Shown: positions 3,348 through 63,697 of the stretch, piece by piece | Numbering within the stretch: the first letter of the stretch is position 1 | How the letters are laid out: each line of letters begins with the position of its first letter | Origin: Anaerolineae bacterium | GTDB lineage: Bacteria > Chloroflexota > Anaerolineae > UBA1429 | DNA: 64,000 bases | Direction of reading: 5' to 3' | NCBI GenBank assembly: GCA_040768605.1 | Contig: JAXGMP010000001.1 | Location: 1,483,740 to 1,547,739, forward strand | Notes under the pieces: model-generated | Told to the model about the DNA's origin: nothing | Seen by the model: the letters and a program-made list of their open reading frames with translations, nothing else | Database searches by the model: none | Made by a program: the position numbers and the translations under genes

Positions 3348-5270
3348 ATGATCACTCTGATGCGTGAGGACTTTCGCTCTCTCCCCATTGGCAACATCAG
3401 CAAGTGGCCCTACAGCCCTGCTGGCGAGTACCACGTTGTGCCCGAGCCGCCTTCCGGACGCTGGGAAGAGGCCAACATCTCCGGCCGCTGGCGCGACTCT
3501 ACCGGCACCTTCAAGATCATCCCTGAGGGTGGCCGCCGCGTCATGGAGCAGACCTACCTGGACGACCATGAGACGCCGCTCATTGTCACCGGCTCACGCC
3601 TGTGGGACGATTATGTCCTCTCGGCCGATGTCCGCCCGTTGGGCTGGGCACGCCCCATCGGCCTGGTGGTCCGCTACCAGCACAGCCGTCAGTACTACCT
3701 GTTTGCCCTCTACGAGGACCAGGTGGCTTTTATCAAGCGCGACCACACCGAGGAGACCGTCCTGGCGCGCGCGCCGTGGAAGGGCTGCGTCGATCGCTAC
3801 TTCAGGGTTGAGGTTGGCTGCGCAGGAAACCGCCTGAGCGCCTCCATCGAGGGCACCCAGATCCTGACCGCCTTGGACGACACCTTCACCAAGGGCCGCA
3901 TCGGCCTCCTGGCGGAGACCACTGCCCGCTTTGCTGACGTCGAGGTTACTACCGACGAGTCCTCGGCGCGCCGTATTGCCGCCGCCGAGCAGGCCTGGGC
4001 CGACGAGGAGGCCGCCCTACGGGAGGCCAACCCGGAGCCGATCCTGTGGAAGCGCATCTCCACCTCTGGCTTTGGCACCGACCGCAACCTTCGCTTCGGC
4101 GACCTGAACGGCGACGGGCGCCTCGAGATCGTCGTCCCGCAGGCCATCCTGCACGGCCGGCGCGACTCTTTCTCCATGATCAACTGCGTCACCGCGCTGG
4201 ACCTCGACGGCAACGTGCTCTGGCAGGTGGGTGAGCCCACCCTGCAAGAGCCGGAGATGACCAGTGACATCTGCATCCAGGTGTACGACTGGGACGGTGA
4301 TGGCAAGGCCGAGGTGATCTTTACCCAGGACTTCCGCCTAAAGATCCTGGACGGCGCCACCGGCCAGGTCAAGCGCGAGATCCCTACCCCCGTCGACACG
4401 GACCTCCGCCCGGGCGAACCATACGTGCGCACCTTTGGCGACTCGATCTACTTTGCCGACCTCGAGGGCTGCGGCGCGCGCCGCAACCTGATCCTCAAGG
4501 ATCGCTACAAGACCGTCTGGGCCTACGACAACGACCTCAACCTCCTGTGGAGCCATACCCTCAACACCGGCCACTACCCGATCGCCTATGATGTCGACGG
4601 GGACGGCAAGGAGGAGCTCCTCGTCGGCTATACGCTCATCGATCACGACGGCACCATCCTCTGGTCGCTGGACCTCACCGACCATATGGACGGCGCTTTC
4701 ATGGGCCGCTTTACGCCGGACGGGCCCGTGCGTATCTGCATGGGCGCCTCGGACGAGGGTTTTGTCATGGTCGACGTCGAGGGCAACATCCTGGCCCATC
4801 AGCTCCGTGGTCACTGCCAGGGGGCCTCCGTTGCCCGCTTCCTCCCCGATCGTGACGATGTTCAGGTGGCGACCATCACCTTCTGGCACCATCCCGGCAT
4901 CATGACCACCTACGACACCGATGGCAACGTCCTCGCCGAGGTGGAGCCGCTGCAGATCGGCTCGATCCTGCCGCCGGTTGACTGGGCCGGCCACGGGCGT
5001 GCCCTGCTCCTGCACAACACCCATCCTACCACGGGTGGTCTGATGGACATCTTTGGTCGGCGCGCGGTGATGTTCCCAGATGACGGGCACCCCGTCCTCT
5101 GCTCCGAGGCGATCGACATCGACGGGGACGGTCACCAGGAGATCCTCTCCTGGGACTTTCACTCGATCTGGATCTACAAGGCCGACCCTGCTCAAGTCGG
5201 GCCCGGCCGCCAGTATGGCTCGACGCCTATCTATAACAACTCGAACTATCGCGCGCGCTGGCTCTTCTAG
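3348..5270 (+). CDS. FG-GAP-repeat beta-propeller protein with an N-terminal DUF1080 (concanavalin/laminin-G-like) domain, possibly a PL11-like polysaccharide lyase
   Basis: ATG at 3348 is preceded by GGAGG. The N-terminal domain matches the DUF1080/3-keto-disaccharide-hydrolase fold. Several FG-GAP calcium motifs are present (FGDLNGDGRLEIVV, YDWDGDGKAEVIF, YDVDGDGKEELLVG, IDIDGDGHQEIL). The first 73 codons of the ORF-track frame overlap the previous gene and are rejected. Confidence 0.8.
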   Translation: MITLMREDFRSLPIGNISKWPYSPAGEYHVVPEPPSGRWEEANISGRWRDSTGTFKIIPEGGRRVMEQTYLDDHETPLIVTGSRLWDDYVLSADVRPLGWARPIGLVVRYQHSRQYYLFALYEDQVAFIKRDHTEETVLARAPWKGCVDRYFRVEVGCAGNRLSASIEGTQILTALDDTFTKGRIGLLAETTARFADVEVTTDESSARRIAAAEQAWADEEAALREANPEPILWKRISTSGFGTDRNLRFGDLNGDGRLEIVVPQAILHGRRDSFSMINCVTALDLDGNVLWQVGEPTLQEPEMTSDICIQVYDWDGDGKAEVIFTQDFRLKILDGATGQVKREIPTPVDTDLRPGEPYVRTFGDSIYFADLEGCGARRNLILKDRYKTVWAYDNDLNLLWSHTLNTGHYPIAYDVDGDGKEELLVGYTLIDHDGTILWSLDLTDHMDGAFMGRFTPDGPVRICMGASDEGFVMVDVEGNILAHQLRGHCQGASVARFLPDRDDVQVATITFWHHPGIMTTYDTDGNVLAEVEPLQIGSILPPVDWAGHGRALLLHNTHPTTGGLMDIFGRRAVMFPDDGHPVLCSEAIDIDGDGHQEILSWDFHSIWIYKADPAQVGPGRQYGSTPIYNNSNYRARWLF

Positions 5271-5297
5271 CGGCCAGCCGCGCAGGCACGCAGTAAG

Positions 5298-5340
5298 CCC
5301 CGCCCGAAGGCCCGCCGGCCTTTGGGCGGGGTTTGTTCTT
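5298..5340 (+). terminator. Intrinsic terminator: 15-bp stem (CCCCGCCCGAAGGCC / GGCCTTTGGGCGGGG), 4-nt loop, then a TTTGTTCTT U-tract
   Basis: The hairpin and U-tract are seen directly. It sits in the convergent gap between the FG-GAP gene (+) and the glycerate kinase gene (-). Confidence 0.65.
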
Positions 5341-5441
5341 GGGGGGAGGGGCCCTACGCACAGCCGGCGCAGACAGATCGCCGAGCCCTGCCGGCCGCCG
5401 CTGTGGGCGCATGGCACCCGATGAGCAGGCGCGCCAGCCCC

Positions 5442-58913: not shown

Positions 58914-60278
58914 TCACCCCACGCCCGTATGGGCGACCTCGTACTTGCCCTGCAGCCCCTTCACCGGCGCTCCCTGTAGGTTGTACAGCACCCCGAACAT
59001 GCCCGCCAGCTGCTGGGCCTCGCCAGGGTGCTCATCGATCAGGTTGTGCCGCTCCTGCGGATCGTCGACGAGGTGGTACAGCTCGTCCACCTGGTCGGCC
59101 GGGCGGCGGATGTAGCTCCAGGTCAGATCGCGCACCACGCGGTCCGGCGCCTGGTGGTACCCGGAGATGATCGCCTGGCGGATGGCCGGCACCTCGCCGC
59201 GGATCACCGGTAGCAGACTCTTGCCGGGGAGGGCATCCAGGTTGTTGCCCATGCCGATCGCATCCAGAAGCGTGGGCAAGACGTCGTGGAAGGAGCCCAG
59301 CGCCTGCAGCCGCTGCCCTCCATGGCGTGCGCCCGGGAAGCGGATCAGGAAGGGGACCTTGAGCAGCTCGCTGTACAGGCGGTCGCCGCCCTTCAGGAAC
59401 TTGCCATGGTCGGCCAGCGGGTGGCCGTGATCGGCGATGAGCACGATCACCGATGTCTCGTACAGGCCCAGGTCCTTCAGCCGGTGCAGCAACACGCCCA
59501 CATAGTGGTCGACGTAGGCACACTCGCCGGCATAGAGCCCGCGGATGTAGGCGATCTCTTGGGCGCTGAAATGAGCCGAGGCCGGCCCGCCCGGCGGCAG
59601 GATGAGGCGCTTGCCCCGGTAGGAGGGGTCGGTGTAGCGGTCGAACTCGGGCGGTGGGGTCCACGGCTCGTGCGGGTCAAACGAATCGAGGAAGAGGAAC
59701 AGCGGCTGAGAGGCGACGTTCCGCTCCAGCCAGGCGTTGGCCTTGCGCACCAGCCGCGCGGCATAGTGGTCTTCGGCCGTCTCGAACTCCTCGACGTTCT
59801 TGAGCGCCGTCTCGACGATCCGCCGCCACTCCGGAGAGTAGGTCTCTTGACAATAGTCGTCGAGGCGCAGCCTGGTCAGCGGGCCTGAACGGTAGGCGTC
59901 GTACTCCTGCCCACGCACCCACTCCCAGGTACGGTAGCCGCGGTGCAGGTTCATCCCCGGCTTGAAGTAGTGGTAGCAGTCGGTGTACAAGGCCGTCAGG
60001 TAGCCGGCGCTGGCCAGGATCTCCGGCAGGCTGCGGTCCTCCGGGGTCAGCGGCTGCCAGGGGCGGTGTACCAGGGTCCTCTCGCCCGTCAGCCAGGCGG
60101 TGCGCACCGGAATGGTTGGCAACCCCTCCGGGTAGACGTTGTCAAAGGCCACGCTCTCGCGCGCCAGCGCGTCGAGGTGGGGCGTCGCGCAGGGCGCGGC
60201 GGGGTTGTAGAAACGCACGTGGTCCTGCCGGAAGGAATCGAGACAGATAAAGATGACGTTGGGGCGCTCATCGACCAT
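58914..60278 (-). CDS. Sulfatase-like (alkaline-phosphatase superfamily) hydrolase with Thr at the formylglycine position
   Basis: Sulfatase N-domain (NVIFICLDSFRQDHV). The signature position reads T-I-P-V-R-TAW-LTG rather than C/S-x-P-x-R. GAGGAGG lies 8 nt upstream of the ATG. Confidence 0.88.
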   Translation of the reverse strand: MVDERPNVIFICLDSFRQDHVRFYNPAAPCATPHLDALARESVAFDNVYPEGLPTIPVRTAWLTGERTLVHRPWQPLTPEDRSLPEILASAGYLTALYTDCYHYFKPGMNLHRGYRTWEWVRGQEYDAYRSGPLTRLRLDDYCQETYSPEWRRIVETALKNVEEFETAEDHYAARLVRKANAWLERNVASQPLFLFLDSFDPHEPWTPPPEFDRYTDPSYRGKRLILPPGGPASAHFSAQEIAYIRGLYAGECAYVDHYVGVLLHRLKDLGLYETSVIVLIADHGHPLADHGKFLKGGDRLYSELLKVPFLIRFPGARHGGQRLQALGSFHDVLPTLLDAIGMGNNLDALPGKSLLPVIRGEVPAIRQAIISGYHQAPDRVVRDLTWSYIRRPADQVDELYHLVDDPQERHNLIDEHPGEAQQLAGMFGVLYNLQGAPVKGLQGKYEVAHTGVG

Positions 60279-60394: not shown

Positions 60395-60844
60395 CTAGGC
60401 CCACGGATCGATGGGCGGCTCGTCCTTCTTGATCTCGCTCTGTTCGGGCGCTGAAGGGGCCGGCTTGCCCCTGCCGAACAGGTCGTTGAGGAAAGCGCGC
60501 ACCTTCTCGTCCGCCGTGCGGCCGATGGCCGGCCAGTCGGCGTCGCGAGAGGTACCCACCAGGTGCGCCACGGTGCCCCGAGCCGCGTGTTCCGCCTCAC
60601 GGCCGATATCGTCCCACTCGGCGTCGTCCTGCAGCCCCACGGTCTGGGCAGCGCCGCGGCGGGCGCTGTCCCCCGCCTCGCGGCCGATGGCATCCCAGGG
60701 GGACTCCTCCGGCAGGCCGACCAGGCGGGCTGCCTCGCGCCGCACCTGGTCCTCGATCTGGCGCAAGATATCCCCCCACTCTTTGGCGCTGGAGCGCCCG
60801 GCCCCCTCGGGACCGGCCTGCGGTTTCGGCCCTTCCGTCGTCAT
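60395..60844 (-). CDS. Hypothetical protein with three internal repeats of about 24 aa (W-x2-IGREA...VG)
   Basis: ATG at 60844 with GGGAGGAG 6 nt upstream. Acidic, repeat-containing. No recognisable family. Confidence 0.55.
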   Translation of the reverse strand: MTTEGPKPQAGPEGAGRSSAKEWGDILRQIEDQVRREAARLVGLPEESPWDAIGREAGDSARRGAAQTVGLQDDAEWDDIGREAEHAARGTVAHLVGTSRDADWPAIGRTADEKVRAFLNDLFGRGKPAPSAPEQSEIKKDEPPIDPWA

Positions 60845-60958
60845 GTTGGCTCCTCCCGTTCTCATCGAACCCACAGACGGCAGCTACACTGCCATTCTAG
60901 CAGGCGTCGGCGCCAGCGTCTACGGGTCTGCAAGCCGCAAGATCATCATCTGCAGACG

Positions 60959-60987
60959 TTGCCTTCCGCGCTGCAATGATGTATGAT
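60959..60987 (+). promoter_or_regulatory. Promoter candidate TTGCCT-17 bp-TATGAT driving the leuS leader
   Basis: Hexamers seen in the sequence, about 245 nt upstream of the leuS start. Confidence 0.4.
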
Positions 60988-61019
60988 GTCCCCAGTGATA
61001 GACAGCAGGTGACAGTGCG

Positions 61020-61115
61020 ATGCACGCTGGCCATATCTCCCACAGCCCGGCTCTCCTTCTTGCGGGGCTCCTCCTTCGGAGGAGCTATTGCCGCATGGGA
61101 GGCGGCCGGGCGTAA
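61020..61115 (+). CDS. Putative Leu-rich leader peptide (MHAGHISHSPALLLAGLLLRRSYCRMGGGRA) of a leuS attenuator
   Basis: SD AGGTGA lies 7 nt before the ATG. There are six Leu codons in eight positions (CTC CTT CTT gcg ggg CTC CTC CTT), three of them the rare CTT. The stop is followed by a hairpin and a canonical terminator. The ORF is not in the ORF track because it is shorter than 60 aa. Confidence 0.45.
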   Translation: MHAGHISHSPALLLAGLLLRRSYCRMGGGRA

Positions 61116-61151
61116 CCTGGTAAGCGCTATCTGACCAGGCTCAGGCCACCC

Positions 61152-61188
61152 ACGAGGGCCCCCATGCGGGGCCCTCGTTTTGCTTTCC
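61152..61188 (+). terminator. Canonical intrinsic terminator (11-bp GC stem ACGAGGGCCCC / GGGGCCCTCGT, loop CATGC, then UUUUGCUUUCC) 16 nt before the leuS start
   Basis: Hairpin and U-tract seen directly. It lies inside the leuS 5' leader downstream of the leader ORF. Confidence 0.65.
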
Positions 61189-61204
61189 CAAGGAGGAACA
61201 CGCT

Positions 61205-63697
61205 ATGCCTACATACCGAGATGAGCAGCCAGAAGACCAGGAGGCCCGCTACGACCACCACGCCGTGGAGCGCAAGTGGCAGCAGACCTGGGAGGAAACC
61301 GGGATCTACCGCGTCGACCTGGACGGCGCTGCGCGCCCCTACCTCAACCTCATGGAATTCCCCTATCCCTCTGGCGAGGGCCTCCACGTCGGGCACGTCT
61401 ACACCTACGGCGGGGCGGACGTGCACGGTCGCTACCAGCGCATGCGCGGCCTCGACGTTTTCCAGCCGATGGGTTTTGACGCGTTCGGCATCCATGGGGA
61501 GAACTATGCCCTGCGGCTCGGCGTCAACCCTGCCATCCTGGTGCCCAAGAACATCGTCCGCTTCCGCGAGGAGCAGATGAAGCGCATCGGCGTGGCCTTC
61601 AACTGGGAGCGCCAGGTGGATACCACTGATCCCGCCTATTACCGCTGGACGCAGTGGATCTTCCTGCGCCTCTACCACGCCGGGCTGGCCTACCGTGCCG
61701 AGGCGCCGGTGAACTGGTGTCCCTCCTGCCTGACGACCCTGGCCGACGAGCAGGTCATCGACGGCGAATGCGAGCGCTGCTCATCCCCCGTGGCCACCCG
61801 CCGGTTGACGCAGTGGTTCTTCCGCATCACCGACTATGCGGACCGGCTGCTCGACTTTTCCAAGGGGGACTATCCCGACGTCACCCGCAAGCTGCAGACG
61901 GCCTGGATCGGCCGTCGCGAGGGGACGGAGCTTCGCTTCACCGTCCAAGGTGGCGGAGAGATCACCGTGTTCACCACACGCGTGGACACGCTGCACGGCG
62001 CCACCTTCCTGGTGCTGGCCCCGGAACACCCCGATGTCAAGCGCCTGACCTCCGCCGACAGGATGGCCGAGGTGACGGCCTACTGCGAGGAGACCTCCGG
62101 CCGGACACCGGCCGAGCGGCTGGCCACTGGCCGGGCCAAGACGGGCGTCTTTACCGGCTCGCTGGCCACCAACCCGATCAATGGCCGCGCGCTGCCCATC
62201 TGGGTGGCCGATTACGTCCTCGCCGAGTACGGCACCGGGGCCGTCTTTGCCACGCCGGCGCACGACGCCCGCGACCTCGAGTTCGCGGTGGGGCACGGCC
62301 TGCCGGTGATCGAGGTCGTGGCTCCGCCCGAGCCGCTGCCCGAGGACGAACGCCCCCCGCGGGCCGCCTACGAGGGCGAGGGCGTGCTGATCAACTCCGG
62401 CGAGCACACCGGCCTCAGCACGGCGGAAGGGCGCCGCGCCATCACCGAGGACCTGGCCGCCCGCGGCCTGGGGGGCTTTCGCGTGACCTATCGCCTGCGC
62501 GACTGGCTGATCTCCCGGCAGCGCTACTGGGGCCCGCCGATCCCGATCGTCTACTGCGAGCGGTGCGGCACGGTTCCGGTCCCCGAGGAGGACCTGCCCG
62601 TGCTGCTGCCGAGGACCGAGCACTTTCGCCCGCTGGGCACGGGCGAGTCCCCTTTGGCCTCGCTGCCCGAGTTTGTGGCCACGCGCTGCCCGCGCTGCGG
62701 AGGGCCGGCCCGCCGCGAGACGGACGTTTCCGACAACTTCCTGGATTCTGCCTGGTACTACCTGCGCTATACCTCGACGGAGTACAGCGATCGCGCCTGG
62801 GATGAGGGGCGCCTGCGGCGCTGGCTGCCCGTCAGCCAGTATACCGGCGGCGTAGAGCACTCTACCCTTCACCACCTGTACGCGCGCTTCCTGTGGAAGG
62901 CCCTGCAAGACGTGGGATGCCTGCCGCGTGACCTCGGTGTGGAGCCGTTCGCCCGGCTGCGCCTGCACGGCGTCGTCCTCAAGGATGGCGAGCGGATGAG
63001 CAAGAGCCGCGGCACCGTGGTGAACCCCGACGAGTACGTGGCGCGTTACGGCGCCGACGTGCTGCGCGTGTACCTGCTGTTCATGGGGCCCTTTGAGCGT
63101 GGCGGGGACTTTCGCGACGATGGCATCAACGGCGTCGTCCGCTGGTTGCAGAACCTCTGGCGGGTAACGGCCCCGCGCGCCACCGCACCGGCCGACGAGG
63201 CCCCCGCCGCTGAGGAGATGCTCCCGCTGCGGCGCGCGTTGCACCGGGCCATCCGCAAGGTGACCGATGACGTCGAGTCGATGGCCTTCAACACCGCCAT
63301 TGCCGAGCTGATGGCCCTCACCAACACCCTGCGCGAGTGGCGCGATCATGCCGACGTAAGGTCGTGGGATGAAGCCGTATCGGCCCTGATCCGTCTGGTC
63401 GCCCCTCTGGCCCCCCACCTGGCCGAGGAGCTGTGGGCCAGGGAGGGCCAGCCCTACAGCGTGCACCGTCAGCCCTGGCCCGAGTGCGACCCCGCACTGA
63501 TCGAGGCGTCGCGAGTGACGCTGGCCGTCCAGGTGAACGGGCGTCTGCGCGGCAGGGTGGAGGTCCCAGCCGGGCTGGAAGAGGCGGAAGCGGTCCGCCT
63601 GGCGCTGGGCCTGGAGGGGGTGCAGAACGCCCTGGCGGGCCGCACGGTGCGGAGGACGATCGTCGTGCCTGACCGGATCGTGAACCTGGTGGCGTAG
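61205..63697 (+). CDS. leuS: Leucine--tRNA ligase
   Basis: HIGH motif (HVGHVYTY), KMSKS motif (RMSKSRGT), CP1 editing domain and Zn-binding cysteines. SD AAGGAGG. Confidence 0.97.
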   Translation: MPTYRDEQPEDQEARYDHHAVERKWQQTWEETGIYRVDLDGAARPYLNLMEFPYPSGEGLHVGHVYTYGGADVHGRYQRMRGLDVFQPMGFDAFGIHGENYALRLGVNPAILVPKNIVRFREEQMKRIGVAFNWERQVDTTDPAYYRWTQWIFLRLYHAGLAYRAEAPVNWCPSCLTTLADEQVIDGECERCSSPVATRRLTQWFFRITDYADRLLDFSKGDYPDVTRKLQTAWIGRREGTELRFTVQGGGEITVFTTRVDTLHGATFLVLAPEHPDVKRLTSADRMAEVTAYCEETSGRTPAERLATGRAKTGVFTGSLATNPINGRALPIWVADYVLAEYGTGAVFATPAHDARDLEFAVGHGLPVIEVVAPPEPLPEDERPPRAAYEGEGVLINSGEHTGLSTAEGRRAITEDLAARGLGGFRVTYRLRDWLISRQRYWGPPIPIVYCERCGTVPVPEEDLPVLLPRTEHFRPLGTGESPLASLPEFVATRCPRCGGPARRETDVSDNFLDSAWYYLRYTSTEYSDRAWDEGRLRRWLPVSQYTGGVEHSTLHHLYARFLWKALQDVGCLPRDLGVEPFARLRLHGVVLKDGERMSKSRGTVVNPDEYVARYGADVLRVYLLFMGPFERGGDFRDDGINGVVRWLQNLWRVTAPRATAPADEAPAAEEMLPLRRALHRAIRKVTDDVESMAFNTAIAELMALTNTLREWRDHADVRSWDEAVSALIRLVAPLAPHLAEELWAREGQPYSVHRQPWPECDPALIEASRVTLAVQVNGRLRGRVEVPAGLEEAEAVRLALGLEGVQNALAGRTVRRTIVVPDRIVNLVA

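Follow-up and report, generated by a model that had tools for sequence, protein, structure and literature searches.

In a 64,000-nt stretch of Anaerolineae bacterium DNA (contig JAXGMP010000001.1; this whole stretch is called the window below), the leucine--tRNA ligase gene leuS is preceded by a short leucine-rich open reading frame (ORF) and an intrinsic terminator. We propose that this leader is most probably a classical ribosome-mediated transcription attenuator, which senses charged tRNA-Leu and controls leuS. As far as the compared sequences allow us to judge, it is best read as a real, conserved leucine attenuator that forms a new sequence family with no entry in Rfam. The mechanism itself is textbook and has a precedent for leuS, for which it was predicted in Streptomyces. 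The parts of the leader and the gene behind it are as follows.

60959-60987, plus strand: sigma-70-like promoter, TTGCCT-17 nt-TATGAT (-35 box 60959-60964, -10 box 60982-60987; promoter scan)
61007-61012, plus strand: Shine-Dalgarno (SD)-like AGGTGA, 7 nt 5' of the leader ATG (sequence)
61020-61115, plus strand: leader ORF of 31 codons plus TAA (61113-61115), encoding MHAGHISHSPALLLAGLLLRRSYCRMGGGRA (ORF list and conservation of the frame in the family)
61045-61111, plus strand: P1 hairpin (1:2) with helices CUCC/GGAG, GCGG/CCGC and CUCCUCC/GGAGGAG (minimum free energy fold, RNAalifold consensus and pair counts)
61053-61076, plus strand: region 1, the regulatory Leu codon run CTC CTT CTT GCG GGG CTC CTC CTT (sequence)
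61078-61085, plus strand: region 2a, GGAGGAGC, partner of the Leu codons GCUCCUCC at 61067-61074 (repeat I8, 8 nt, 100% complementary)
61091-61099, plus strand: region 2b, CCGCAUGGG, the proposed 5' strand of the antiterminator (repeat I6, 9 nt, 100% complementary to 61161-61169)
61116-61139, plus strand: small hairpin P2, CCTGGTAAG / CTGACCAGG, directly 3' of the leader stop (repeat I9 of the inverted-repeat search)
61152-61188, plus strand: intrinsic terminator (3:4), stem-loop ACGAGGGCCCC-CATGC-GGGGCCCTCGT at 61152-61178 and tail UUUGCUUUCC (terminator search)
61161-61169, plus strand: region 3 apex, CCCAUGCGG, spanning the upper part of the terminator 5' arm, its loop and the two G that open the 3' arm; proposed 3' strand of the antiterminator
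61190-61197, plus strand: SD of leuS, AAGGAGGA (duplex energy -11.4 kcal/mol)
61205-63697, plus strand: leuS, the downstream gene, leucine--tRNA ligase of 830 amino acids (NCBIfam TIGR00396 leuS_bact, 849 bits against a cutoff of 548)

An earlier sequence-only reading of this DNA had named the promoter, the 31-codon ORF, the Leu run, the hairpin behind the ORF and the terminator, and all of these are present at the coordinates listed. The promoter scan found 2 promoter-like sites in 1 kb where 0.1 would be expected, and the TTGC and TA..AT columns of the promoter are invariant across six relatives (alignment A1). The AGGTGA in front of the leader stands at the spacing that the reading had given, but calling it a good SD overstated its strength. 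Its duplex with the extended anti-SD has a moderate energy of -9.1 kcal/mol, which 7% of random windows equal, and it is weaker than the SD of leuS.

Six of the eight codons in region 1 are Leu codons. All six are CUC or CUU and none is the dominant CUG; the leader ORF as a whole is likewise free of CTG codons. Across the 35 long ORFs of the window, Leu is encoded by CTG in 57%, CTC in 28% and CTT in 5% of cases, which bears out the remark that CTT is rare here. The CUC and CUU codons of the leader are presumably read by tRNA-Leu GAG, following standard decoding. No tRNA genes were found in the 64,000 nt of the window.

The terminator stem has 11 bp, 9 of them G-C, closed by the loop CAUGC and followed by TTTGCTTTCC, with a hairpin energy of -23.9 kcal/mol. 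It is placed between the promoter and leuS, all on the same strand, and ends 16 nt before the leuS ATG (61205). Since the nearest upstream gene lies on the opposite strand (60395-60874, minus), the terminator cannot belong to an upstream gene.

We then compared the region with other leuS loci (L081-L091 and L103-L105), fetched around LeuRS relatives 61-97% identical to that of the window. The module precedes leuS in 11 other distinct sequences on Chloroflexota-like contigs within this range of identity, and the closest LeuRS proteins are recorded under "Anaerolineae bacterium" or "Chloroflexi bacterium" as their source; the exact LeuRS sequence of the window gave no record on look-up. Each of these leuS loci has a sigma-70-like promoter, a short ORF, a shared core and a strong terminator upstream, where the promoter was judged by eye in distant members and is supported by alignment A1 in close ones. 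The family core reads GCTCCTC-N6-AGGAG-N5-GCCGC-N-TGGGA and is followed by the terminator; L105 matches it approximately, with GACCCG in place of TGCCGC.

The same module also stands in front of a leucine-biosynthesis gene. It precedes leuA in two Caldilineaceae lineages, one represented by L092, L096 and L102 and the other by L106. The leuA of the former encodes a long-form 2-isopropylmalate synthase (NF002991, 870 bits), and its closest named relatives are Caldilineaceae. A further leader copy, L097, sits at a contig end, with its downstream gene off the contig. Together with the window, the 11 leuS sequences, the two leuA lineages and L097 make up 15 distinct sequences. A covariance model, R1, was built from 14 of them with L106 left out, and it finds the untrained L106 before leuA in a Caldilineaceae metagenome-assembled genome at 73.6 bits (E = 9e-24). 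The occurrence of one leader before leuS and before leuA fits a leucine-sensing element.

Scanning metagenome contigs with the core pattern returned 11 loci. Five of them, belonging to three lineages, are genuine members (L092/L096/L102, L097, and L100, the last being the L089 contig). The other six (L093-L095, L098, L099 and L101) look like chance matches in coding DNA, as they score at most 21 bits with R1 and have no terminator. Neither the pattern nor R1 found the element in the 80 leuS loci listed with LeuRS 42-56% identical, drawn from many phyla including other Chloroflexota, and both likewise found no second leader copy in the window. Because R1 is silent in these 80 loci and in the rest of the window, the element appears to be confined to a single clade and to go with two leucine genes. 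Leu-rich leader ORFs of any kind were few and weak among the 80 distant loci, and the best candidate, L015, has no promoter or terminator.

The terminator is kept along with the rest of the module. Stem energies in the 14 sequences of R1 run from -16.6 to -29 kcal/mol. Behind each stem comes a tail containing T, a poor one in L083, L084 and L086; a corresponding terminator hairpin and T tract are present in L106. At L082 the leuS start called in the source lies about 120 nt 3' of the terminator (1890-2000), farther than in the window. Single-sequence folds place a small hairpin at the P2 position in most relatives, with sequences unrelated to one another.

The reading frame of the leader is conserved. 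ORFs of 26-34 codons are open in all 15 members, and no member keeps the hairpins without the ORF, the outcome that the sequence-only reading had said would count against it. In 14/14 sequences the frame-0 stop falls between 36 and 51 nt past the core, nine of them placing it at +45, and TAA, TAG and TGA are all used; the stop of L106 is likewise at +45. First stops in frames 1 and 2 vary widely, from 8 to 2659 nt, and 0 of 28 fall within 36-51 nt. An in-frame ATG is always present (GTG in L082), inside an upstream open stretch that often spans only 45-81 nt. The single indel among close relatives is 9 nt long and preserves the frame.

The peptide itself appears to be free to vary. N-terminal residues change without restraint (compared with the window, L081 has R for H, T for A and S for P), and the C-terminal half shows non-synonymous changes where the bases are unpaired, with Y, D, H, R, G or N at one codon and C, G, W, R or D at another. 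These changes rule out a conserved functional peptide at the C-terminal RSxCR[ML]G motif. As the N-terminus is free and the C-terminus is fixed only at paired bases, conservation applies to the frame and the pairing, not to the peptide. Leu codons are the exception. Each leader has 4-9 of them in two runs among the 14 sequences, and 10 in L106. At the third codon of the second run, situated in the hairpin loop, 11 of 15 members have Leu by way of CTT, CTG or TTG, and the replacement of CUC CUC by CUU CUG in L106 keeps Leu-Leu. These substitutions indicate that Leu identity is selected beyond the nucleotides, the L106 part of this evidence coming from one lineage.

The leader RNA of the window folds better than its shuffles (z = -3.0), of which 1 in 200 does as well. 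P1 is a long imperfect hairpin that takes in the whole leader ORF from codon 9 on. Its 5' arm is the second Leu run, CUCCUCC, and its 3' arm, GGAGGAG, lies inside the same ORF, a pairing that the sequence-only reading had missed. Across the family, 91% of the cells of P1 and the terminator are paired and 10 pairs show two-sided changes; none of 500 shuffles attains any of these values. Six of nine pairs in the terminator stem covary. RNAalifold run on a plain MAFFT alignment, with no structural input, gives the same P1 and terminator. The upper helix of P1 is invariant in 14 of 15 sequences. In L106, where CUC CUC has become CUU CUG, the partner GAGGAG has become CAGAAG (within CAGAAGG), so that three pairs of this helix are compensatory.

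An attenuator further requires a pairing that competes with the terminator. In the window, region 2b (CCGCAUGGG, 61091-61099) and the apex of region 3 (CCCAUGCGG, 61161-61169) form a perfect 9-bp match. Region 2b has the form GC-N-UGGGAG(G) and starts 24 nt 3' of the core. RNAduplex places 2b against region 3 in a single register in 14/14 sequences, with energies of -15 to -22 kcal/mol. In the alignment of 15 sequences, 82.8% of the 2b:3 cells are paired, and shifting the partner by 1-3 columns lowers this to 36-54%. In every member the terminator loop ends in GC or GU, opposite the GC of region 2b, an unusual feature for a terminator loop. We mimicked the co-transcriptional state by masking a ribosome over the Leu codons and ending the RNA at the terminator loop. 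In 12 of 14 sequences, these folds join region 2b to the 5' arm of the terminator; automatic arm detection failed for L084 and L086. The alternative structure that the sequence-only reading had expected a fold to reveal is thus available, as the 3' half of the leader hairpin can pair with the terminator 5' arm and loop in every member. We regard the 2:3 pairing as conserved and plausible, rather than proven.

What we observe directly are the sequence elements, the conservation of these and of the reading frame, and the pairings that are possible; from them we infer translation of the leader ORF, stalling and the regulatory outcome. Transcription would start from the promoter at 60959-60987, and the 31 leader codons would be translated by a ribosome. 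With abundant Leu-tRNA, this ribosome would run to the UAA at 61113 and cover region 2b (61091-61102), the terminator (61152-61178) would form, and most transcripts would end before leuS. When the Leu-tRNA that reads CUC and CUU is scarce, the ribosome would stall in the Leu run (61053-61076), mask regions 1 and 2a and block P1. The free region 2b could then pair with the terminator apex (61161-61169) once this is transcribed, which would block the terminator and allow read-through into leuS. Without translation, P1 (1:2) and the terminator (3:4) would both form and transcription would end.

The spacing of the leader agrees with the size of a ribosome. By standard values, a ribosome covers about 15 nt downstream of its P site. 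If the A site holds one of the Leu codons of the second run, this footprint would mask region 1 and region 2a (GGAGGAGC) and leave region 2b free. A ribosome at the stop codon (core +45) would cover approximately core +27 to +57, including the GGGAG of region 2b, so that the terminator would form. The frame, the Leu codons, the 1:2 and 3:4 structures and the potential for 2:3 pairing lend support to the attenuator architecture and to the stalling interpretation put forward from the sequence.

Several observations weigh against this interpretation. The evidence for an attenuator is computational throughout, and the structure behind the model to which alignments A4 and A5 were fitted is the authors' own. 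Covariation in the upper helix of P1 comes from one lineage only, L106. The covariation of 2b:3 is not above that of shuffles, with one two-sided pair and a score that 95 of 500 shuffles reach. In G+C-rich members the energy of the 2b:3 duplex is no better than with shuffled partners. Equilibrium folds in every case favour the terminator strongly over the antiterminator, and so the attenuator model relies on kinetics and on the coupling of transcription with translation. Furthermore, the SD before the leader ranges from -11.5 kcal/mol to none and is unrecognisable in L084, L092, L104 and L106; duplex energies that run from strong to absent do not support the SD as a family-wide feature.

At one of these four loci, L104, a promoter TTGCCC-17 nt-TATATT is seen at about 1255-1280, and the leader ATG starts 7 nt after the -10 box, with six bases between. 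The leader mRNA of L104 may be leaderless, like the leaders reported in Streptomyces.

A T-box shares with the present leader the genomic position, the output of more synthetase at low charged tRNA and the terminator/antiterminator end. In a T-box the RNA binds tRNA directly, whereas the sensor proposed here is the translating ribosome. The sequence-only reading had seen no T-box on the leuS strand, and the scans agree with it. Searching positions 60700-61400 against Rfam 15 at E<=10 returned no T-box, riboswitch or leader-peptide family (Leu leader, Leu/Phe leader and others), with four weak unrelated matches only. Likewise, a scan of seven leader-carrying relatives at the gathering thresholds gave no match, including to the T-box model RF00230. 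A positive control, L005 (Ktedonobacterales), does have a T-box before leuS, at 97 bits, which shows that the scan finds T-boxes in Chloroflexota when they are present. The lack of a covariance match, of a specifier loop and of a T-box sequence rules out a T-box leader here. As the L005 T-box stands before leuS in another member of the phylum, the leader cassette may fill the role that the T-box has elsewhere in Chloroflexota.

A different RNA-only element would explain part of the data. P1 and GCCGC-N-UGGGAGG could bind a ligand, tRNA or a protein such as LeuRS in the manner of a riboswitch, and the ORF would then be incidental in a G+C-rich leader. It is true that the most conserved nucleotides are the paired ones, with the upper P1 helix nearly invariant, that the C-terminal half of the peptide changes non-synonymously at unpaired bases, and that SD signals are not conserved. 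An incidental ORF, however, would hardly keep its frame-0 stop within a 15-nt window by means of three different stop codons while the stops of the other frames scatter, nor would it always keep a start codon and take indels in multiples of three. Leu is also retained through synonymous codons at unpaired loop positions and in L106. The element is moreover short and simple, has no conserved multi-helix ligand pocket, matches no Rfam family and has no T-box specifier or T-box sequence. We consider an RNA-only element quite unlikely. A functional small hydrophobic protein, either co-transcribed with leuS or separate and with the hairpin as its own terminator, is highly improbable. Conservation of the ORF and its hydrophobic core, LLLAGLLL, speak for a protein, but a protein would not be expected to leave its N-terminus unconstrained and its C-terminus constrained only at paired nucleotides. 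Nor would it be expected before two leucine-related genes, leuS and leuA, and its terminator would sever leuS from the only promoter visible for it.

Control could also act mainly on translation, or on two levels. The Leu run CUCCUCCUU would then serve as an anti-SD that sequesters the leuS ribosome-binding site, with the terminator in a secondary role. Within the window, the 12 nt of UCCUCCUUCGGA (61069-61080) have 92% complementarity to UCCCAAGGAGGA (61186-61197), which contains the leuS SD (repeat I2). A precedent is the LEU element of actinobacteria, whose Leu run forms base pairs with the SD of leuA in a pseudoknot; no terminator is described for it, and translational control was proposed (PMC1262725). 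The LEU element resembles the present leader in having a leader ORF with a Leu run that pairs to a GGAGG-type sequence, and in its association with leuA. It differs in that the Leu run here pairs with an internal GGAGGAG, after which a strong terminator follows in all members. This terminator and the use of the SD behind it for a mini-ORF, not for leuS, in L087, L091, L104 and L105 set the family outside the LEU element, and they also argue against an anti-SD mechanism. The local partner GGAGGAG is much nearer to the Leu run than the SD is. Since any CUCCUCC pairs with any GGAGG SD, complementarity between the Leu run and the leuS SD is expected by default. We hold translational control by the Leu run to be very unlikely.

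The mini-ORFs themselves lie 3' of the terminator in four lineages (L087, 1926-1953; L091, 1932-1959; L104, 1439-1474; L105, 1378-1432). They have a strong SD (GAAAGGAGG), always start with MGL (ATG GGN CTC), and encode MGLVN, MGLEN, MGLERII and MGLAMYVPHDNLL, each followed by a stop. They end 27-69 nt before the leuS start, and the equivalent SD in the window serves leuS directly. With its single Leu codon, an MGL mini-ORF could act as a second, translational checkpoint. A broader proposal would see in the one module a small leucine regulon of a Chloroflexota clade, comprising leuS and leuA, with a T-box-like role and a two-level action in which CUCCUCC works as an anti-SD and the MGL mini-ORF as a checkpoint; we offer this as a speculation that is rather unlikely to hold in full.

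The preferred reading, a leucine attenuator that acts on transcription, has relatives among known systems. Classical attenuators were predicted before leuS in S. avermitilis and S. coelicolor in 2005 (Seliverstov et al., PMC1262725). In S. lividans TK24, a leaderless 12-amino-acid leuL2 (MRAVRLLLSEPR) and a terminator were mapped before leuS, and leuL1 before leuA (PMC8079986). The Streptomyces leuS attenuators thus share with the present family a short Leu-rich leader ORF and an intrinsic terminator directly before leuS, and in S. lividans also a Leu leader before leuA. They differ in phylum, Actinomycetota as opposed to the Chloroflexota-like contigs here, and in the leader, which in Streptomyces is a 12-residue peptide on a leaderless mRNA and here a stretch of 26-34 codons enclosing the whole 1:2 hairpin. 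No shared sequence core was seen between the two, which are set apart here by published descriptions and not by nucleotide alignment. Among synthetase operons, attenuation of E. coli pheST has also been cited (PMC1262725).

The comparison with enterobacterial leaders is likewise close in design. The leader of the leu operon, leuL, is Rfam RF00512, and the textbook case of a synthetase operon under attenuation is E. coli pheST, whose pheM leader contains cognate codons. Like pheST, the system proposed here would be an aminoacyl-tRNA synthetase operon under leader-peptide attenuation, for another amino acid and in another phylum. With the leu, trp and his leaders it shares the logic of alternative 1:2, 2:3 and 3:4 hairpins, tandem cognate codons that use a minor codon, and a stop placed so that a terminating ribosome covers region 2. 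Unlike in those leaders, the gene is a tRNA synthetase, no Rfam leader model matches (E<=10), the Leu codons come in two runs split by two other codons, and the regulatory codons themselves form a stem with region 2a.

A full-text literature search on leader-peptide attenuation in Chloroflexi returned no paper. Lopatovskaya et al. 2010, reportedly a survey of the attenuation of amino-acid and aminoacyl-tRNA operons across bacteria, may list such elements. Leader-peptide attenuation is best known in Proteobacteria and predicted in Actinobacteria, and the present family would extend it to a Chloroflexota clade, with one recognisable leader common to a tRNA synthetase gene and a biosynthesis gene. 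A specialist may find this neat and not surprising, as the mechanism is textbook. Model R1 and the 15 sequences provide starting material for an Rfam-type family, and annotators should not treat the region upstream of leuS here as empty.

Two of the leader loci, L083 and L104, come from different contigs of the same assembly, GCA_040960625.1, and each has its own leader copy. Their LeuRS proteins are 72% and 64% identical to that of the window, and because they differ within one assembly, GCA_040960625.1 probably mixes two organisms. At L082, a transposase of the IS110 family is found just downstream of leuS (4580-5434).

Upstream of the leader, the divergent gene at 60395-60874 (minus strand) encodes a 159-amino-acid protein with three W-[DP]-x-I-G-R-[ET]-A repeats, whose relatives have no Pfam record. 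A promoter-like site for this gene lies at 60922-60894, and beyond the gene is a sulfatase (58914-60278, minus strand). L081 and L083 have the same arrangement of sulfatase, small protein and leuS. In L084 and L085 a small protein of similar size also stands before leuS, and the next gene out has no Pfam family on record. Between the two divergent genes, an imperfect inverted repeat, TCATCATCTGCAG ... CTGCAATGATGT, flanks the -35 box of the leader promoter at 60943-60982. It surfaced as a weak IRE_II-like Rfam match (22 bits, E = 0.18). The repeat shows one substitution in L081, whose LeuRS is 97% identical, and the region differs in L083-L086. Given its position in the divergent promoter region, this repeat could be a candidate operator.

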